From the NCBI GenBank assembly GCA_027449885.1, contig DAIDKS010000001.1, positions 6,644 to 70,643 of the forward strand: a DNA stretch of 64,000 nt, written 5' to 3'. Source of the stretch: Acidimicrobiaceae bacterium. Its GTDB lineage: Bacteria; Actinomycetota; Acidimicrobiia; Acidimicrobiales; RAAP-2. Both the position numbers and the translations under genes were made by a program. Shown piece by piece: positions 1 through 9,579 of this stretch. Every line of letters starts with the position of its first letter. Position 1 is the first letter of the stretch. The notes beneath the pieces are model-generated. The model worked only from the letters and a program-made list of their open reading frames with translations. It made no database searches and was not told where the DNA came from.

Positions 1-5
1 TGTTC

Positions 6-899
6 TTGCAGCTTGTTCGGCGGCTTTTCATCGTGGTCCTCGTCGCCGCCCTCTTTGGCACCTACCTGCTCATTCACCCCTTCGTCGGATCGAGCGCTCC
101 GGACACGTCGGGGTTCTATCTCGACATCGGCGCCTCGGCGTCGTTGGGCTTCCAACCGACCGGCATTCCCAAGCACAACGGTCACCGCACGAACACTGGC
201 TACGCCAACGACGTCGTCAACTACCTGGCGACCAAAGCCGTCAATCTCCAACTACGCCAGATTGGATGCCCCGGCGAGACGGTCGAGTCCATGCTCCTGA
301 GTGGCGACCACTGCTATACCCTGCCCCAGCGTCAACTACTCGCCGCGGAGCAATTCCTTCGAGCCAACCACGACGCCGTCGGTTTGGTCACCATCGACCT
401 GGGTTTTAACGATGTGCGACCCTGTCTCGTCACGGCCGTGGTCGACGAAGCCTGCGTCACCTCGGGTTTGGCCTTCGTCAACCGCGATCTCTCACCCGTG
501 TTGGCGGCCCTCAAGTCGGCGGCGGGCCCCAATGTCCACTTCATCGGCCTCGACTACGGCGATCCGTTCCTCAACAAGTATCTGAAGGGCGGCGTGCACG
601 TCGCCGTGGCCACGCGCACGTTGGAGGTCATGTCGGCGCTGGACGCCGAACTCGTCCACGCCTATCAGTCGTCGAACATTCCGGTGGCCAATGTCGCCGG
701 GGCCTTTCAGCTCGATAATCGAAATCCCGCCGAACTGAAGGGCGTGGGCGTCGTGCCCCTCAACGTGGCCAAGACCTGTGAATTGACCTGGAACTGTGTG
801 GGTTACCCCTTCGGTCCCGACGACCACCCCAATAACAAGGGCTACAGCGTCATTGCGTCGGCGATCGAGGCGGTATTGCCCGCGGCCTGGCGAGGCTAA
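6..899 (+). CDS. Secreted or membrane-anchored SGNH/GDSL-family hydrolase (start uncertain, near window edge)
   Basis: N-terminal hydrophobic segment; block I-like LDIGASASLG, block III DLGFND, block V DDHPNNKGY; paralog of 5519-6421. Confidence 0.8.
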   Translation: MQLVRRLFIVVLVAALFGTYLLIHPFVGSSAPDTSGFYLDIGASASLGFQPTGIPKHNGHRTNTGYANDVVNYLATKAVNLQLRQIGCPGETVESMLLSGDHCYTLPQRQLLAAEQFLRANHDAVGLVTIDLGFNDVRPCLVTAVVDEACVTSGLAFVNRDLSPVLAALKSAAGPNVHFIGLDYGDPFLNKYLKGGVHVAVATRTLEVMSALDAELVHAYQSSNIPVANVAGAFQLDNRNPAELKGVGVVPLNVAKTCELTWNCVGYPFGPDDHPNNKGYSVIASAIEAVLPAAWRG

Positions 900-996
900 C
901 TTTTATGAGTATCGTGACGCAGACGTCGGTCCCCTGGGCCAGCGTCTGCGTTACCCGCGCCAGCGCGGCGCGTCGCAGCGAACGAAGGGGTATGTG

Positions 997-2496
997 ATGT
1001 CATCGGACCTGTCAATCCCCTCGTCGATTCGTCGATTCGTGACCGGCGAAAGTCCCGCCATGTTGATCGACGGCGCACACGTCCCCGCGGTTTCGGGTGA
1101 GACATTTGAGACGTTGAATCCAGCGACGGGCGAGTTGCTCGCCCACCTGCCCGCCGCCGACACGCCCGATGTCGACCGCGCCGTCGCGGCCGCCCGACGC
1201 GCGTTCGAGGATGGGCCGTGGGCGACCATGAAGCCGTTCGATCGTCAGCGGATCATGATGCGCTTCGCCGACCTCGTCGAAGCGAACCACGAGGACCTCG
1301 CCATCCTGGACACCCTTGACATGGGTGCGCCGATCCAGCGCATGCGCGGCAACCTTCGACGTGCGGTGGGAATGGCGCGCTTCTACGCCGGTCTCACGAC
1401 GGCGCTACGCGGTGAGACCATCGCCAACTCGATTCCCGGTGACTTCCAAACCCAGACGCTACGCGAGCCCGTCGGCGTGGTTGGCGCGATCATCCCGTGG
1501 AACAACCCACACATCGCGTTTATTTGGAAGGTCGGTGCTGCCATCGCCGCGGGGTGCACGGTCGTGCTCAAGCCCGCCGAGGAGGCGTCACTCAGCGCGT
1601 TGTGGCTGGGCGAAATGCTGCTCGAGGCCGGCCTGCCTAATGGTGTCGTTAACGTCGTCACGGGCTTTGGCGAGACGGCGGGCGCAGCGCTGAGCGCGCA
1701 CCCTGGCGTCGACAAGATCGCCTTCACCGGTTCGACCGCGACTGGTCAAGCCATTGTTCGCGCCGCCTCTTCGACGCTCAAGCGCGTGACCCTCGAACTC
1801 GGAGGCAAGTCGCCCAACATCGTCTTCAAGGACGCGGACCTCGATCTGGCCGTGCCGGGCGCCGCGATGGCGGCCTTCATCAACTCGGGCCAGGTCTGCA
1901 GCGCCGGGACGCGGCTGTTTGTCGAGCGCGACATCTACGACGATTTCGTCAGCGCCATGTCGGCGTACTCGCAGTCGCTCACCGTCGGCAACGGACTGGA
2001 CGCCACGACCCAACTCGGACCATTGGTCTCTCAGACCCAGCTCGAGCGGGTGACAAGTTACTTCGCGATCGGACGCGCCGAGGGGGCCGCCGTCTCCTCG
2101 GGGGGAGAACGTCTCGTCGAAGGCGACTTCGCCAGCGGCTACTACGTGGCGCCCACGATCTTTACCGACGTGCACAATGAGATGCGAGTCGCCACGGAAG
2201 AGATTTTCGGTCCAGTTGTCTCGGTCATGGCCTTTGACGACTACGAGTCCGTCGTTCGCCTCGCCAACGCCAGTCCCTTTGGTCTGGGCGGTGGTGTGTG
2301 GACGAACGATCTCAACAAGGCGAACCGCACCGTGAAGGCACTGCGCACGGGAACGGTCTGGGTGAACTGCTACGGCCAGATGGACCCCGCCGTGCCGTTC
2401 GGTGGGTACCGAATGAGCGGCTACGGCCGTGAGGGCGGCGTTCAGCACCTGGACGAGTTCCTCGAGACCAAGGCCGTCTGGATCCAGACCCATTGA
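997..2496 (+). CDS. NAD-dependent aldehyde dehydrogenase
   Basis: IIPWN, KPAEE, FTGSTATG, LELGGKSP, catalytic GQVCSAG, EEIFGPV, PFGGY; ATG at 997 after GAAGGGG. Confidence 0.95.
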   Translation: MSSDLSIPSSIRRFVTGESPAMLIDGAHVPAVSGETFETLNPATGELLAHLPAADTPDVDRAVAAARRAFEDGPWATMKPFDRQRIMMRFADLVEANHEDLAILDTLDMGAPIQRMRGNLRRAVGMARFYAGLTTALRGETIANSIPGDFQTQTLREPVGVVGAIIPWNNPHIAFIWKVGAAIAAGCTVVLKPAEEASLSALWLGEMLLEAGLPNGVVNVVTGFGETAGAALSAHPGVDKIAFTGSTATGQAIVRAASSTLKRVTLELGGKSPNIVFKDADLDLAVPGAAMAAFINSGQVCSAGTRLFVERDIYDDFVSAMSAYSQSLTVGNGLDATTQLGPLVSQTQLERVTSYFAIGRAEGAAVSSGGERLVEGDFASGYYVAPTIFTDVHNEMRVATEEIFGPVVSVMAFDDYESVVRLANASPFGLGGGVWTNDLNKANRTVKALRTGTVWVNCYGQMDPAVPFGGYRMSGYGREGGVQHLDEFLETKAVWIQTH

Positions 2497-2587
2497 TCGT
2501 GGTCGACCGGAGGATTCCCTGGTACTTCTCACCCATCGTCGCCCTTCGCGGGCCTCGTTGGCGAACTGGCCGAGCTCGGAGCCGCGC

Positions 2588-4096
2588 ATGAACGACGAGG
2601 ACTCGCTGCGCGAGCTCATCGCGCGCCAGTCGTCGCGCTTGGCGCGGGCGCCCTATCTACTGCGACTTCGCACCCCCGAGGCGGTTTCCTTCGCCGATCT
2701 CGAGCAGGTCGTCGGCCGGTGGTCGTCGTTGCTGCGCGAGCGCTCACTGCGACCTGGCGACCGCGTCGGACTCTTGATCGGTGACCCGCTGCACTTCGCC
2801 CAAACCTTCCTCGCGCTCATCGCGTGTGGACTCTGGGTGGCCCCGCTCGACCCAACCGTGAACCCGATCAACGCCGAGGTTCTCAACGCACGGCTCCGCC
2901 GACTCGGCGTGCACACGGTCGTCAGCGATGCCGACCGGCCCGCTTCGATCACGGCGAACTGGTTCGATGTTCGCACCGTCCACCTGACGAACCTCGACGA
3001 GTCCGTTCGAGCGTCAGAACGTTCCGGCGGCGTGATCCTCGCGTCCTCGGGCACGACCGGGACCCCGAAGGTGATCGCGTTGCCGGTGACCCAGCTGCTC
3101 CACGCAGCTTCGCTGATCGCGGTGCACAACCAGTTGACCCCATCGGACCGGGGACTGAACCCGCTGCCTCTTTGGCATATCAACGCCGAGGTCGTTGCCG
3201 TCCTGGCGTCTCTGGTGGCGGGCTCGTCAGTGGTGCTCGACGAGCGCTTCCACCGGACGGACTTCTGGACCCTCGCCGATATGTACGAGGTGACCTGGAT
3301 CAACGCCGTGCCCGCCATCATCGCGCGACTGTCCAACGTGACTGACGCCGAGCCGATACCGGAGCGCATCCGTTTCATTCGTTCAGCGTCGGCTCCCCTG
3401 TCGCCCGCCGTGCTCGAGCAGTTCCAATCGGCCGTCGGCATCCCGGTGGTCGAGTCCTACGGCATGACCGAGGCCGCGAGTCAGATCAGTGCCAACCCGC
3501 TCGACGGTGAGCGCAAGCCCGGCTCGGCCGGCGTACCCGTAGGCGTGGAGTTGCGCATCGTGCCCCTCGACCAGGACGAGGCTGAGCCCTCGCCGCCATC
3601 GGCGGCCGTGGGACACGTCGAGATCCGCGGGCCGTCGGTGATCACGCACTACGAGAGCGCCGGGTACGAGGATCGCTTCAGCCTCGACGGCTGGCTGCGC
3701 ACCGGGGACCTCGGGTACCTCGACGACGACGGCTATCTCTATCTCGTGGGCCGAAGTGACGACGTGATCAACCGCGGCGGCGAGAAGATCTTCCCGCGCG
3801 AACTCGAAGACGCCGTGCTCGGTGTGGTGGGCGTCCGCGGCGTCGCCGTGGTCGCACAGCCCGATGACGTTTTCGGCCAAGTCCCGACCGCCTACGTCGA
3901 ACTCGCCGAGGACTGCGACCAGCGCGCGGTGTTGGCCCAGTTGCGTCGCGTCGTCACCGAGGGGTTCCCCAAGACGCACTGGCCCGTCGCTTTCACGGTC
4001 GTCGCCCGCCTGCCCGCCCACGCCACGGGCAAGATCCAGAAGCACCGCCTCGCGAGCGAGCCAATCGACGTGATCACGACCTGGGACCTCGCGTGA
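2588..4096 (+). CDS. AMP-forming acyl-CoA synthetase (resembles oxalate/short-acid CoA ligases)
   Basis: SSGTTGTPK, RFIRSASAPL, ESYGMTEA, WLRTGDLG, INRGGEKI, TGKIQK. Confidence 0.9.
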   Translation: MNDEDSLRELIARQSSRLARAPYLLRLRTPEAVSFADLEQVVGRWSSLLRERSLRPGDRVGLLIGDPLHFAQTFLALIACGLWVAPLDPTVNPINAEVLNARLRRLGVHTVVSDADRPASITANWFDVRTVHLTNLDESVRASERSGGVILASSGTTGTPKVIALPVTQLLHAASLIAVHNQLTPSDRGLNPLPLWHINAEVVAVLASLVAGSSVVLDERFHRTDFWTLADMYEVTWINAVPAIIARLSNVTDAEPIPERIRFIRSASAPLSPAVLEQFQSAVGIPVVESYGMTEAASQISANPLDGERKPGSAGVPVGVELRIVPLDQDEAEPSPPSAAVGHVEIRGPSVITHYESAGYEDRFSLDGWLRTGDLGYLDDDGYLYLVGRSDDVINRGGEKIFPRELEDAVLGVVGVRGVAVVAQPDDVFGQVPTAYVELAEDCDQRAVLAQLRRVVTEGFPKTHWPVAFTVVARLPAHATGKIQKHRLASEPIDVITTWDLA

Positions 4097-4124
4097 CCGG
4101 CCAGCCCCGGTGCCAGGTGCGCCG

Positions 4125-5366
4125 ATGAGCGCCACCCCGGAGCCGGCCACTGCGCCGTCGGCGGGCACCCGCCGTCGACTCGACCACATCGACGCCATGC
4201 GACCGGTGAAACAAGCGGCCGTCATCTCGACCCACGCGCTCATCTTCTTCGCGCCGTTGGCCACCAGCACCACCGTCGTGGGGCTGATCATGCTGACCCG
4301 GTTCTCGCGCGACGCCTTCCTCTTCGTCTCGGCGTGCATGCTGACCTACAGCTATCGCAGCACGCCAAAGGTCGAGATCCGGACTTACACGAAGCGGCGC
4401 TTCCTGTCAGTCGGCGTGCCGTACCTGACTTGGACGCTGCTCTACTTCGTCTACACGTCCCTCGACAGCCGGTCGGCGTTTCCGTACTACGCGGTGAACA
4501 CCGCCCACCTCTTCAGCTGGAGCGCACTTCGGATCCTGATTCACCTCACGGCCACGGGGTACTACCACCTCTACTACCTGCTCGTCATCGCCGAGTTCTA
4601 CGTCTTGTTCCCGCTCATGCTGCGCGTCATCCGGCGACACCCCACCTGGCACTGGCGGATTTTGGCGGGGTCACTCATCTGGCAGATCGCCTACGGCGCG
4701 TGGGTGAGCTCGCACCACTCCGTGCTCGACATCTCGGGATTATTGCAAACGCGAATGATCCTCTCGTACGTCATCTACATCGTGGGCGGCGTCATAGTGG
4801 CGCTGCACCTCGACGAAGTACACCAGTGGATCGTGCGTCACGTCGCGTTGATCCTCGTTGGCACACTCGGCGCCATGGCCCTCGCCGAAGTCCTTACCTA
4901 CGTCGGCGTCGCCCACGACCTCCCCACCTACCTTCGTACCGGTACCTACGTCTTCTCACCGCTGATCATCCCCTACAACGTCGGCGCGATCCTGTGCGTC
5001 TACCTGCTCGGGGTGTTCCTCACCGCTCCGGCTCGCCGGGCGAGGATCCGCGCGATGGTCCAGTCCGGCTCGGACAACTCCTACGGCGTCTATCTCTCGC
5101 AGATGGTATGGATTCCCGCCTTGGTTCGGCTCCGCGGCGCCAGTGGCGTCCACCTGCCCTGGCAGGTCGCGGCCCCGCTCGCGCTGGTCATCGTCTACAG
5201 CGTCGGCTTCGTCTTCACCGCCCTCATGGCTCGAACCTGGTTCGCCAGGGGCGTGACCGGTCGGAGCCGAGCGACCTGGGCGAGCCTACTGCCTCGCCGA
5301 ACGCTCCCAACGGTCGTCGAGCACGGTGACGTCGCTGACGGACCGATGGACGTCGTCGAGCCCTAA
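4125..5366 (+). CDS. Acyltransferase-3 family integral membrane O-acyltransferase
   Basis: RLDHIDAMR...STH, FLFVSA, KRRFLSVGVPYLTW, YHLYYLLVIAEFY, SYGVYLSQ; about 10 TM segments. Confidence 0.85.
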   Translation: MSATPEPATAPSAGTRRRLDHIDAMRPVKQAAVISTHALIFFAPLATSTTVVGLIMLTRFSRDAFLFVSACMLTYSYRSTPKVEIRTYTKRRFLSVGVPYLTWTLLYFVYTSLDSRSAFPYYAVNTAHLFSWSALRILIHLTATGYYHLYYLLVIAEFYVLFPLMLRVIRRHPTWHWRILAGSLIWQIAYGAWVSSHHSVLDISGLLQTRMILSYVIYIVGGVIVALHLDEVHQWIVRHVALILVGTLGAMALAEVLTYVGVAHDLPTYLRTGTYVFSPLIIPYNVGAILCVYLLGVFLTAPARRARIRAMVQSGSDNSYGVYLSQMVWIPALVRLRGASGVHLPWQVAAPLALVIVYSVGFVFTALMARTWFARGVTGRSRATWASLLPRRTLPTVVEHGDVADGPMDVVEP

Positions 5367-5518
5367 CGACGCAACGGACCGTGAATTCTTATGGATTTCT
5401 TCGTCTTTGATACGTATGTGAACCCCGTTTCGCCCTACCGTGGATGGGATTCAGAACTGGATCCGCGACGGACCCTCCTAACAGGTCGCCGTCGCGCAGT
5501 TACCGTCAAGGAGACTGG

Positions 5519-6421
5519 GTGCTTCGTTCCCGAGGAGTTTTTTCGCGTGGCGCATCAGTGGTGGCGGCCGCGTTGACGGTGCTCGTAGGGGCGGGACTCG
5601 CGGATGTCGGCGCCGCGGGCGCCGCAACCACTACGACCACCACGACTGGCTTCTACCTCGATTTGGGCGCCTCGGTATCGGTCGGCGTCCAACCCACCGC
5701 GCTGCACCCGACCGGCCATCGCACCCACCACGGCTTCTCCAATGATTTGATCGCCTACGAAGCCAGTCGTGGCATCTCCCTGAGTCTGACCGAGCTGGGC
5801 TGCCCCGGTGAGTCAGTCGCCACGATGGTGAACGGACAGGACGGCTGCTATCACGCCGGTGACTCCCAGCTCGCTGACGCCATCACGTTTTTGAACGCCC
5901 ACCACGATCAGACCGGACTCGTCACCATCGATCTTGGCTTCAATTCGGTGGTCGGGTGTCTGCGAACCCACACTGTGGACCCGGCCTGCGTTCAGCAGAG
6001 CCTCGCGACGATGGGGCCACAGCTCTCGAGCATCCTCACGGTGCTGAAGTCGGCCGCCGGGCCGAACGTGACCTTCGTGGGCATCAGCTTCGCCGATCCC
6101 TACCTCGCCCAGGCGGCCAACGGCGCCTCGGGTCGGGTCCACGCGCACGCGAGCCTCCAGGCCATCAGCCAGCTCGACCAGACCCTCGCCGCGATCTACC
6201 AGGCGCACGGCATGCCGATGGCGAACGTCGCGAGCGTCTTCCACTTGCACCAGACGACGACCAGGTCTGGGTCCCGTGTACCTGAGAACGTCGCCACAGT
6301 CTGCCAACTCACCTGGATGTGCGCTTCCGCGCCCTACGGTCCCAACATTCACCCCAACCGCGCCGGCTACGAGGCGATCGCCGACGCCATCATCGCCGTC
6401 CTCCCGCCGCCGTTCCATTAG
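5519..6421 (+). CDS. Secreted SGNH/GDSL-family hydrolase
   Basis: GTG at 5519 after AAGGAG; signal peptide and Thr linker; LDLGASVSVG, DLGFNS, NIHPNRAGY. Confidence 0.8.
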   Translation: MLRSRGVFSRGASVVAAALTVLVGAGLADVGAAGAATTTTTTTGFYLDLGASVSVGVQPTALHPTGHRTHHGFSNDLIAYEASRGISLSLTELGCPGESVATMVNGQDGCYHAGDSQLADAITFLNAHHDQTGLVTIDLGFNSVVGCLRTHTVDPACVQQSLATMGPQLSSILTVLKSAAGPNVTFVGISFADPYLAQAANGASGRVHAHASLQAISQLDQTLAAIYQAHGMPMANVASVFHLHQTTTRSGSRVPENVATVCQLTWMCASAPYGPNIHPNRAGYEAIADAIIAVLPPPFH

Positions 6422-6812
6422 CCACGCAGCTCAGCGGCCCGCGGCCCGCGGCCCGCGGCAAGGGCGCTGGCACCACACGACGAATCCGTTCGAGCACGTC
6501 GCCCCACGCAACTGTCGTGTCACGGTACTCTGCCCTGACCACGGCAGAAGTCGCCCGATGACACCGCAGGAATCGGCCGTCGTCGCTCCCGGGATGCACG
6601 AACCAATCGAGCGGTCCGACGCCAATCGAACGAACCAGCCGTGCAACGCGTGCCGGGGCTGGGCCGTGCATCGAGACGTTCGCTGCCGCGTCGCAGGCAA
6701 GCTCCGAGGCACCCCTCGGGGGACCAGTCGTCCCTGATCAGGTGTTCGCTCGCGTTCCGGTGCAAGGAGGGGTGCTGGTGACCACAGTCACCTGTGCCGT
6801 CGTTTGCCGTCT

Positions 6813-7256
6813 CTACCAGCCGCCGGGCGCGCAACCGTTTTGATCCGGGACCCAGCCACCCGTGACCCGCATGCCGATCAAGATCTGAGCGTCGCGCGGT
6901 GCCTCACCGGCCAGGGGCGCGAACTGCGTCCCGCCGTACTCGAGCCACGTGGAGTTGGCGAAACCAATCCCCGAGTAGAACGGCCCCTCCATCGACCAGT
7001 TTCCCGCGACCTCACAGATGGCCACGTGTTGCCACTCAGCGCGCAGCTGATTGACGGTCACGCGTGCGAGCGTCGCCACGTACGTGAGAATGGACGGATG
7101 ATGGATCACCCTTGTGACGTGGGGTTTTGACCGATGCCGCGTCGCAACGACGTGCTTGACGCGTGCGGTTGGCGGCGTGCTCGCCGCTCCACCGGACGAT
7201 GGCAGAATCGCCGCGCTCGTGAGCAACGCCATGGTCGCATACAAGATTCTTCGCAT
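6813..7256 (-). CDS. Resuscitation-promoting-factor-like secreted lytic transglycosylase
   Basis: Signal peptide; WQHVAICEVAGNW, STWLEYGG, APLAGEAPRDAQI match the Rpf core; AAGGAG RBS. Confidence 0.8.
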   Translation of the reverse strand: MRRILYATMALLTSAAILPSSGGAASTPPTARVKHVVATRHRSKPHVTRVIHHPSILTYVATLARVTVNQLRAEWQHVAICEVAGNWSMEGPFYSGIGFANSTWLEYGGTQFAPLAGEAPRDAQILIGMRVTGGWVPDQNGCAPGGW

Positions 7257-7661
7257 GGTTTCTCCTTTGGCGTGCACGGCACCCGTGCCACGCCGCGCTA
7301 CGGACGGAGACACTGGGCGCACGACTTGGTGTCAAACCGAAAAGGTCCACCAAGCGGCACGGTCAATTGGCCACTTAACCCACTCGAATGTGAGGTGACA
7401 TCGAAGCAGTCTTTGCTGCGGGGTTTATTCTACGGCACTAACATCATCTGTGACGCACGTTGGAGTGATTTTCTTCCTTGTTGGCCCTTTGATCAGGGTT
7501 TCTGAGAATCACATTTTCTTCGCCCGATGATAACCAATTGCACAACTTCTGGTAATTCGTATGCATCACCTGCCCGAACATGCTCGCCACCTCGGGTTAT
7601 GCAGGGCGAAATGATGGGGGCTCAATGGGTTTGCGTACTGGCTGGTCAGCGAAGTGGCGCG

Positions 7662-9113
7662 TTAGGGTCGACCCTTGCCAATTCCCTTGCCGTGGCCGTT
7701 TCCCGGTGCCGAACCCGCGAACGTCGTGGTCGTGGTGGTCGTGCTCGGGGCGCCGACCCCGAGGGCGGCCGCGAGTTCGGTGACGTCGTGCTCGAGCACC
7801 GGTGCGATCGTGGCCGAGACGGTACCGTCGGTGACGCCGCTGACGATCAACGTCATCGCCTGCTGCAGAACGTTCGCAACGGCGGGGAGATTGGCGTTCG
7901 CACCATCGCTGAGTGATTGTTGCGCCAGCTGTTCGATGCGTTGGGCCACGGCGGGATCGATGGCGTTCGCGGCTTGACTCGCGACGAGATCAGCAGTCAA
8001 GGAGGCCTCGATCGATGAACTTGATCGGACCGTCGTCGACGTGGACGGTTGAATCGTGGTCGACGTCGACGGTCCAGCCGGCGGCGATGAGCTGGTCAAC
8101 AGCGAGATCAACGCGTAGAGCAGCGCGCCGATGATGACCAGGACACCCGCAATGGCCCACGGTCGACGCTCGTCGTGCCCGCTCGATCGTGGCGGTGGCG
8201 CGAGAACGGTGTCGTCACTCGACCGACGCGGGGGCGGGTCAAACGCCACGCTGGTCTTCGCCGCCAAGCTATCGCGCTCAATGACCATCGTTGCAGCCTC
8301 GTCGCGCGGCTCCCAGGCCGTCGCGTACGCCGAAGTCTCGAGCAGGGACGCGACCTCGGCACCGCTCAGTCGGCGTTCGGGTCGAGAATCCAGCATGCCT
8401 CTAAGCAGGACCGACCACGGCGCCGGCAGGTCCGCGGGAAGCTCGACGGGTCCAGTCAATCGCTTCGCCACGATCTCGCTCGGCGAACCCTCGAAGACGC
8501 GCCGCCCGGTGAGACACTCGAGAATCACGATGCCCAGGGACCAGACGTCGCCGCTCGGGCCCACTCGCTGGCCGTCGAGTTGCTCGGGCGCCATATACAT
8601 CACCGTCCCGATCGTCGTGCCCGGAGCGGTGATCGTCGTCGCGCCATCGAACTTGGCGATGCCGAAGTCGGCGAGCCAAACCTCCCCCGTCGTCGAACGC
8701 AAGATATTCGAGGGCTTGACGTCGCGGTGCACCACGCCGCGCTCGTGCACGTAGCTCAGGGCGTGGGCCACTTTGGCCGCCATCGACGCCGTAGCGGGAG
8801 CACCGAGCGGGCCGGTCTTGAGCGACTGCGCCAGGGTCGTGCCGTCGACGTACTCCATGACGAGGTACGCCAGGTCACCCACCATTCCCGTGTCGAGTAG
8901 TCGCACGAGACCCGGCCCGTCGAGGCTCTCGAGCGCGCGCGCCTCCTCGACCAGCCGGCGCGCGAACTCCGGGTCGCTCGATCGGACGACTTTGACCGCC
9001 ACGGCCTCCGCGGTGCGCTCGTCGCGTGCCTCGTAGACGTCAGCGGTCCCACCCCGTCCGAGGAGTCTGCTGATGCGGTACCGATCTCCGATGACCTCGC
9101 CACTCATGGACAT
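7662..9113 (-). CDS. Transmembrane Ser/Thr protein kinase (Hanks type)
   Basis: LGRGGTADVY, VAVK, HRDVKPSN, DFG, YMAPE, DVWSLG; one TM helix and Ser/Thr-rich linker. Confidence 0.93.
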   Translation of the reverse strand: MSMSGEVIGDRYRISRLLGRGGTADVYEARDERTAEAVAVKVVRSSDPEFARRLVEEARALESLDGPGLVRLLDTGMVGDLAYLVMEYVDGTTLAQSLKTGPLGAPATASMAAKVAHALSYVHERGVVHRDVKPSNILRSTTGEVWLADFGIAKFDGATTITAPGTTIGTVMYMAPEQLDGQRVGPSGDVWSLGIVILECLTGRRVFEGSPSEIVAKRLTGPVELPADLPAPWSVLLRGMLDSRPERRLSGAEVASLLETSAYATAWEPRDEAATMVIERDSLAAKTSVAFDPPPRRSSDDTVLAPPPRSSGHDERRPWAIAGVLVIIGALLYALISLLTSSSPPAGPSTSTTIQPSTSTTVRSSSSIEASLTADLVASQAANAIDPAVAQRIEQLAQQSLSDGANANLPAVANVLQQAMTLIVSGVTDGTVSATIAPVLEHDVTELAAALGVGAPSTTTTTTTFAGSAPGNGHGKGIGKGRP

Positions 9114-9579
9114 GCGTTTCTACTCACGATCCTCGGGTGTCTCGTTCACGGCCTCACAGCAATCGGCGCCGCGCGCGCCGCGCGCGCTAGTAGACCGCGT
9201 CGCCGCCACCACCGTAGCGAGCCGTCGTCCCTCGCGTGGCGCCGAAGTGTCCACTAGCGACGATGACCAGGGACGTTGCGAGGACCACGGTACACGTTGC
9301 GAGATTCGTCCCCTCATCGCGAGTCATCGGCGACACCGGACGACGTGCGGGATCATCATCGCCCGAGATGTCAACAACCCGGACCCCAGGGCCAGCACCC
9401 CACGAGTGGACGCGTCGACTCCACCTTGGCGTCGCATCGTCCCACGGTTGAGCCGTGCACCGTTGTCGGCTCACCGTGACCACGGGACTGCCCGAGGCCG
9501 GCACGTCGCTGAAACAACTTGATGGGACAGTCCGAGTCCATCGCTGGCCCCAACGGGACCGCGAGGGAGAGCGAGTACC

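Follow-up and report, generated by a model that had tools for sequence, protein, structure and literature searches.

AT3 acyltransferases are known to draw their acyl donors, such as acetyl-coenzyme A (acetyl-CoA) or succinyl-CoA, from central metabolism. In OatA and OafA/OafB an AT3 domain with the motifs R-X10-H and RxxR works with an extracytoplasmic SGNH partner, to which it is fused via an 11th transmembrane helix, and the acyl group leaves CoA, crosses the membrane and ends up on a glycan (PMC7448272, PMC9558356). ExoH, which modifies succinoglycan, and OpgC/MdoC, which modifies periplasmic glucans, are stand-alone AT3 proteins transferring an anionic, non-acetyl acyl group onto an extracytoplasmic glycan; their succinyl-CoA comes from central metabolism and they have no dedicated ligase. 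Here we analyzed a 64,000-nucleotide stretch of DNA from an Acidimicrobiaceae bacterium (G000:C1:6644-70643; hereafter the window), which begins with five co-oriented genes for an SGNH protein (SGNH1), an aldehyde dehydrogenase (ALDH), an acid-CoA ligase, an AT3 acyltransferase and a second SGNH protein (SGNH2), converging on a gene for an Rpf-like transglycosylase. The six genes and their arrangement had been proposed by a first-pass annotation made from the sequence alone, and assignment of gene families by Pfam found all of them in place.

The locus shares with OatA and OafA/OafB the two AT3 motifs and the extracytoplasmic SGNH partners, but its AT3 protein stands alone and is accompanied by two separate types of SGNH protein. 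These SGNH proteins have no Asp at the position three residues ahead of the catalytic His and are similar to Streptomyces esterases, and the presence of a dedicated ligase implies that acetyl-CoA is not the donor. The ligase likewise distinguishes the locus from ExoH and OpgC/MdoC, and no relationship of the AT3 protein to these was detected beyond the family. By analogy the arrangement also recalls the Dlt system, where the cytoplasmic ANL enzyme DltA activates the acyl group, the polytopic membrane acyltransferase DltB passes it on and the SGNH-like DltD completes the reaction outside (PMC12148441), as well as PatA/PatB/Ape, where a transferase is paired with an esterase. Both systems, however, employ an MBOAT rather than an AT3 protein, and Dlt uses the carrier DltC instead of CoA.

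The ligase and AT3 genes form the core of a conserved module. A scan of one genome per species yielded 80 loci, nearly all of them in Acidimicrobiales/Acidimicrobiaceae metagenome-assembled genomes from bog, palsa and acid-mine samples; the compared genomes are related to one another and thus do not represent independent samples. For 68 loci, 1.7 kb or more of sequence upstream of AT3 was available, and in all 68 the ligase gene precedes AT3 on the same strand by at most 300 nt; this adjacency persists down to an AT3 identity of 43-45% while the surrounding genes reshuffle. As the adjacency recurs in every one of these related loci, the arrangement is far beyond chance. Among 24 genomes of the same genus, AT3 is present in nine, and ligase orthologues are present in ten, i.e. 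in the nine with AT3 and in one whose ligase gene is truncated by the end of a contig; neither gene is present in the remaining 14. Ligase orthologues (E 1e-144 or better) were cleanly separated from paralogues (E 1e-56 or worse). With a threshold of E 1e-25, an AT3 profile detected no member among 300 other Actinomycetota genomes.

In a tree of the AT3 proteins the loci fall into two clades. Of the 26 loci in the clade of the window, 23 have two or more SGNH genes within 6.5 kb; in the other clade a CLC channel gene and GNAT genes follow, an SGNH gene being nearby in 1 of 21 loci. The first-pass annotation had staked its proposal on ligase, AT3 and SGNH genes occurring together in other genomes, and this is borne out by the adjacency of the pair and by the recurrence of two SGNH genes. 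We regard the five genes of the window as a derived copy of a module that a single clade of uncultured Acidimicrobiaceae, sampled at peat, palsa and acid-mine sites, has retained.

The scan also brought up some peculiar loci. Six members of the CLC-linked clade (L063, L065, L070, L075, L077 and L081) hold a second, divergent AT3 paralogue with 39-45% identity just upstream of the phosphatase gene described below, so that the module has a 'twin AT3' form there. Contigs labelled as Saccharibacteria or Acidobacteria (L035, L053, L058 and L089) nest within the Acidimicrobiales tree, and their bins are probably mis-assigned. The AT3 gene of genome G019 (C38; L005/L014) is split, with an in-frame TGA, and the ComA gene of G018 (C136:31035-31747) likewise contains an in-frame TGA; these are either decaying copies or assembly errors.

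AT3 proteins bind their donor via R/K-X10-H in transmembrane helix 1 and RxxR in the first cytoplasmic loop (PMC9558356). Alignment with 12 homologues revealed that R31-X10-H42 is invariant (numbering according to the 418-aa open reading frame, ORF) and that in R64-F-S-R67 residue R67 does not vary while R64 represents the consensus. A database protein 99% identical to the AT3 protein has 413 aa, and the 413-aa protein ends after the AT3 domain, the SGNH proteins being encoded by separate genes. A crude hydropathy scan gave six clearly hydrophobic regions, the family having about ten transmembrane helices. NCBIfam contained no matching model and a profile search of the PDB returned nothing. 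Other AT3 proteins move non-acetyl or anionic groups, with ExoH and OpgC/MdoC transferring succinyl, CarE transferring isovaleryl and propionyl being moved too (PMC9558356).

The first-pass annotation considered the ligase oxalate-like on the basis of its motifs. The motifs are real, with RFIRSASAPL aligning with RFIRSCSASLAP of the oxalate-CoA ligase AtAAE3, and the three best solved relatives, 5ie0 (3e-59), 8aff and 6qjz, are all oxalate-CoA ligases; oxalate as substrate, however, does not agree with the pocket. In AtAAE3 the oxalate pocket consists of V215, H216, C288, S289, A313, M314, H319 and K500, S289 and H319 being the proposed specificity residues (PMC8905533). At the first seven of these positions our ligase has I, N, A, S, G, M and S, respectively. 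It thus shares Ser289, Met314 and the catalytic Lys motif with AtAAE3 (PDB 5ie0/5ie3), its best solved relative, and differs from it by the replacement of His319 by Ser, His216 by Asn, Cys288 by Ala and Ala313 by Gly, so that one of the two specificity residues is gone and four positions carry smaller side chains. Ser replaces His319 in 61 of 62 ligase orthologues, with Ser289 being retained. As His319 is lacking, the substrate is probably not oxalate; judging from the aligned pocket residues it is probably a small, polar acid that slightly exceeds oxalate in size. Regardless of the neighboring genes, the three pocket motifs are near-invariant in the 62 orthologues, suggesting that the substrate is probably the same everywhere. 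Database models did not narrow the assignment further: the ligase scored 267 bits against the FadD7 model NF004511 (cut-off 650), no NCBIfam equivalog was reached, and the ESM Atlas returned nothing beyond 'AMP-binding' clusters. Taken together, the most economical interpretation is that a dedicated ligase provides a non-acetyl acyl donor.

SGNH1 and SGNH2 are paralogues with 43% identity and the sole two copies in the assembly. Both score weakly in Pfam, the SGNH score standing at 27.8 with a cut-off of 32.9, but their SGNH fold was confirmed by the pattern of invariant residues, by an AlphaFold2 model and by structural comparison. Ser, Gly, Asn and His of the catalytic tetrad (S77, G119, N167 and H303) and six Cys residues are invariant in 34 homologues, and Foldseek with the model of SGNH2 (mean predicted local distance difference test score 86) identified SGNH esterases/lipases with E values of about 1e-8, the best matches being 4hyq and 5mal, a secreted phospholipase A1 and a lipase from Streptomyces. 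A profile search of the PDB with the SGNH family returned nothing. The Asp three positions before the catalytic His (DxxH) is not kept, with nearly all SGNH copies having Pro there. Both proteins have an N-terminal hydrophobic segment, forming a helix at residues 9-27 in SGNH1 and being signal-like in SGNH2, which also contains a Thr-rich linker. Given the invariant tetrad, these N-terminal segments and the match of the modelled fold, both proteins are predicted to be catalytically competent and extracytoplasmic, SGNH2 being secreted and SGNH1 either secreted or anchored in the membrane. Copies upstream of the ligase-AT3 pair carry the block V motif GPDDHPN and copies downstream GPN(I/L)HPN; because of these distinct motifs we assign them, at the sequence level, to two old orthogroups that have both been retained.

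Clues to the identity of the acyl group come from genes which accompany the module in relatives. There, genes for ComA (phosphosulfolactate synthase; PF02679 276 bits, arch_ComA 230 bits) and for a 137-aa protein of the VOC/glyoxalase fold precede the ligase gene. In the 47 well-flanked loci used for all counts of gene context, ComA is found within 4 kb in 39 and VOC within 4 kb in 38. In 38 of the 47 loci a gene for a branch-1 histidine phosphatase (about 204 aa) lies near the module, the search range being 6 kb on the upstream and 3 kb on the downstream side. This gene is either upstream of and divergent from ComA, in one clade, or after AT3 and co-directional with SGNH2, in the other, and it is adjacent in both. 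ComA is present in 10 of 10 ligase-bearing genomes of the same genus versus 1 of 14 without the ligase, and it was not found in 16 other families of the order. Where the trio of ComA, VOC and phosphatase genes has been relocated, it is intact in L107 and L153 and represented by two of its three genes in L109; in L108 the relocated trio is again bracketed by two further SGNH genes, and in genomes of the clade lacking SGNH genes second ComA copies lie directly beside an SGNH gene (L118, L119). In unrelated Actinomycetota (L126, L128, L136 and L139) a branch-1 histidine phosphatase gene directly follows ComA as well, an order that is frequent elsewhere in the phylum; this agrees with a role of the enzyme as the phosphosulfolactate phosphatase, and it may stand in for ComB there. 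The VOC partner (L021:10816-11229) matches PDB entry 3rri, a 135-aa 'glyoxalase/bleomycin resistance protein/dioxygenase' chain, with an E value of 1.8e-54. Although 3rri bears no more specific name, the unexplained VOC enzyme thus already has a solved structure.

The same families occur in the misNOPQ cassette of the type V glycopeptide misaugamycin from Streptomyces sp. WAC00631, which combines genes for an acyl carrier protein (ACP), for an acyl-CoA ligase, for phosphosulfolactate synthase and for a glyoxalase and is predicted to supply an N-terminal 2-sulfoacetyl group (PMC9136965). A malonyl congener of misaugamycin exists, and sulfite feeding favored the sulfonated form (PMC9136965). Ligase, ComA and VOC/glyoxalase are found together in 38-39 of the 47 loci, a comparison made by family only. 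The prediction for misaugamycin fits our ligase since the solved relatives of the latter activate oxalate and malonate. In misaugamycin biosynthesis, however, the acid is delivered to the ACP and the product of a nonribosomal peptide synthetase (NRPS), whereas the ligase is coupled to AT3 here, and no ACP gene is among the recurrent neighbors of the module. By analogy, a sulfonated acid is indicated by the partners ComA, VOC and phosphatase, and since the set of ComA, glyoxalase and ligase is predicted to supply 2-sulfoacetyl in misaugamycin, the acyl donor is probably derived from 2-sulfoacetate or from a closely related acid, for instance malonate or 3-sulfolactate. A sulfoacetyl group specifically is a tentative assignment, which we rate at somewhat less than an even chance. 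Sulfolactyl is a minor option, because we found no paper mentioning sulfolactyl-CoA while sulfoacetyl has the misaugamycin precedent.

The window differs from most relatives in that it contains ALDH instead of ComA, VOC and phosphatase genes, which is also why these three escaped the first-pass annotation. Neither ComA nor VOC was found in a search of the genome, an assembly that is 84% complete, so that their combination with the ligase was not found; this genome-wide search did not extend to the phosphatase. The closest relative of the window likewise yielded no ComA, and when 14-18 kb around ComA from two relatives were compared with G000 a single syntenic gene emerged, which sits at the edge of contig C2. 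In three further genomes from the lineage of the window the trio is found elsewhere.

The first-pass annotation had made ALDH a step of the pathway. ALDH does not belong to the core, being present in 5 of 47 well-flanked loci, but it seems specific for the module where present: copies with 71-90% identity are confined to the module, where each of them lies between SGNH1 and either ComA or the ligase, and the best matches outside the module in 40 relatives have 43-49% identity. ALDH thus looks like a lineage-specific addition to the module and not like a passer-by. Its best solved relatives are betaine-aldehyde and phenylacetaldehyde dehydrogenases, and none of 44 NCBIfam models reached its cut-off. 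We also considered a sulfolactaldehyde dehydrogenase and rejected it, as the nearest models are StyD and betaine-aldehyde dehydrogenase types and not GabD/SSADH. Sulfoacetaldehyde as candidate substrate is speculative.

The idea that the module gates Rpf activity did not hold. Of the 47 well-flanked loci only two (L024, L025), both from the lineage of the window, have an Rpf gene near the module, and in these two the gene is at least 2 kb further away from the module, with other genes between SGNH2 and Rpf. As Rpf neighbors the module solely in this lineage, a link is not supported and the gene is a chance neighbor kept by local synteny. The protein scores 46 bits with PF06737 (cut-off 27) and 34 bits, far below the cut-off of 200, with the NCBIfam RpfC model. 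In the convergent spacer between SGNH2 and Rpf (6422-6812, 391 nt) there is no Rfam match and no terminator-like hairpin, and the region upstream of the Rpf gene contains two sigma-70-like sites (7427-7555, minus strand). The pair formed by the Rpf gene and the Ser/Thr kinase gene just ahead of it on the same strand is kept in L024 and L025.

Our overall explanation is that the module carries out an AT3-based acylation of an extracellular acceptor by a small anionic acyl group fed by the ligase, and we regard it as moderately probable. In the cytoplasm the ligase would convert a small, polar, non-acetyl acid into its CoA thioester, AT3 would carry the acyl group through the membrane, and the two SGNH proteins would add it to and/or remove it from an acceptor outside, most plausibly an envelope glycan. 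We found no paper describing such a decoration. In the genome studied here ALDH might, as a speculation, oxidize sulfoacetaldehyde to the same acid, a sulfonate-type importer being encoded nearby. A bolder version states that 2-sulfoacetyl esters are placed on an envelope glycan by a relay of ligase, AT3 and SGNH protein and are perhaps erased by the second SGNH type, with ALDH in the window supplying the acid from an imported sulfonate instead of its formation from phosphoenolpyruvate and sulfite via ComA, VOC and the phosphatase; taken as a whole, we find it rather doubtful.

Several observations weigh against the proposed acylation or against a sulfonated acyl group. All links are based on gene context among kin genomes, and the module contains no glycosyltransferase or wall-synthesis gene that would indicate the acceptor. 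One whole clade of the module does without SGNH genes alongside, and the SGNH proteins are closer to secreted Streptomyces lipases/esterases than to OatA, PatB or Ape, their fold giving no specific tie. ALDH falls into the broad ALDH1/2/BADH-like class without a specific assignment. The pocket residues mapped in the ligase include no cationic residue obviously suited to bind a sulfonate, and the role of the misaugamycin cassette is itself a prediction (PMC9136965). The sulfonate reading is weakest for the genome of the window, because ComA and VOC were not found there, nor ComA in its closest relative.

Other explanations have to be weighed against this acylation. MurNAc O-acetylation blocks lytic transglycosylases, and on this background the first-pass annotation proposed that an aldehyde is oxidized by ALDH, activated with CoA as oxalate or a similar acid, exported by AT3 and transferred or trimmed by the SGNH proteins, the resulting peptidoglycan modification gating Rpf. 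This full model fits the gene order of the window, and its coupling of ligase, AT3 and SGNH proteins is real, but the scarcity of Rpf near the module, its confinement to the own lineage with genes in between, the presence of ALDH in few loci and the substitutions of His319 by Ser and His216 by Asn make it extremely improbable. A narrower alternative retains the ligase and AT3 as a pair that acts alone, which is common among stand-alone AT3 proteins, and takes the SGNH proteins for secreted lipases or esterases used for feeding, for instance on plant lipids in peat, which are merely syntenic. Their best structural matches, the Streptomyces phospholipase A1 and extracellular lipase, would agree with such a role, as would the near absence of SGNH genes from the other clade and the argument that stand-alone AT3 proteins can act alone (PMC9558356). 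Yet, rearrangements notwithstanding, the pair is flanked by the two SGNH types in 23 of 26 loci, SGNH genes also lie beside relocated or second ComA copies (L108, L118, L119), and the genome possesses just two copies, so we consider a feeding role unlikely.

The arrangement might also reflect inherited synteny without shared function, the ligase being a catabolic or detoxifying CoA ligase for a small acid of the oxalate/malonate type and AT3 an ordinary O-acetyltransferase supplied by acetyl-CoA. All loci belong to one family-level clade, so that shared ancestry could keep the order, and the ligase is overall most like oxalate-CoA ligases. This reading has to account, however, for an adjacency without exception down to 43-45% AT3 identity amid reshuffling, for the strict match in presence and absence, for the Ser at position 319 and for the fact that neither oxalyl-CoA decarboxylase nor formyl-CoA transferase is among the annotated families of recurrent neighbors, and appears quite improbable to us. 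We assign a similarly low probability to the acylation of a secreted small molecule, i.e. a natural product, or an outward disposal of an acid derived from sulfite, in place of envelope decoration. The sole literature precedent for the set of ComA, glyoxalase and ligase is an antibiotic cluster, AT3 proteins acylate macrolides and ansamitocins (PMC9558356), and wall-synthesis genes are missing nearby; on the other hand, the annotated neighbor families of the 80 loci include no NRPS, polyketide synthase or glycosyltransferase genes, and the genomes are small (1.4-3 Mb).

The features at the start of the window are compiled in Table 1. The likely start codons of ALDH, ligase, AT3 and Rpf, all ATG, were chosen from homologue alignments and ribosome-binding sites, with GAAGGGG preceding the start of ALDH and AAAGGAG that of Rpf. 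With these starts the gaps between the five genes on the plus strand are 97, 91, 28 and 77 nt. The ORF of SGNH1 has a possible alternative GTG start 1 nt ahead of the first base of the window (G000:C1:6643).

Table 1. Genes of the module and adjacent genes (window positions; the full ORF is given where the likely start lies inside it)
Feature	Position	Strand	Evidence and assignment
SGNH1	6..899	+	Lipase_GDSL_2 E 6.7e-6, under the Pfam cut-off; 'upstream' orthogroup, block V GPDDHPN
ALDH	997..2496 (ORF 796-2496)	+	PF00171 579 bits; predicted NAD(P)-dependent aldehyde dehydrogenase
Ligase (LIG)	2588..4096 (ORF 2429-4096)	+	AMP-binding and AMP-binding_C; adenylate-forming acid-CoA ligase of the ANL superfamily, oxalate/malonate-CoA-ligase-like
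AT3	4125..5366 (ORF from 4110)	+	PF01757 87.1 bits, cut-off 31; stand-alone, 413 aa
SGNH2	5444..6421	+	Pfam E 4.3e-6; 'downstream' orthogroup, block V GPN(I/L)HPN
Rpf-like transglycosylase gene	6813..7256 (ORF 6813-7322)	-	PF06737 E 8.6e-12; convergent neighbor outside the module
Ser/Thr kinase	7662-9113	-	upstream of the Rpf gene

The cluster starts with SGNH1, as the 6.6 kb preceding the window show that the next genes, encoding an ABC importer and an enoyl-CoA hydratase, are located on the opposite strand. The top models for the binding protein of this divergent importer are SsuA/TauA (aliphatic sulfonate, taurine), with scores below the cut-offs. No RNA family was detected by Rfam in positions 1-9500. 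Terminator-like sites were at background level (5 found versus 5.0 expected), and the scan for promoters and terminators gave no usable operon boundary. About 4 kb ahead of the window a gene for a membrane-anchored redoxin of the AhpC/TSA family adjoins one for a DsbD-like transmembrane protein (L002:1187-2584), and the two proteins may be a thiol-reducing pair for the cell exterior.

A dedicated acid-CoA ligase for a stand-alone AT3 protein would set this module apart from other AT3 systems. The window adds to it a variant that bears ALDH and lacks ComA, together with the paired SGNH orthogroups, and its ALDH narrows the candidate acids to those with a stable aldehyde precursor. If the sulfonate reading is true, phosphosulfolactate synthase would have a new use beyond coenzyme M and spore sulfolactate, and the cell-surface or secreted esters made by the module would represent a new chemical class, with sulfite being fixed into an organic acid in the ancestral form. 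Such a sulfonate decoration would be permanently charged and would thus still be anionic at the low pH of the habitats in which these bacteria live.

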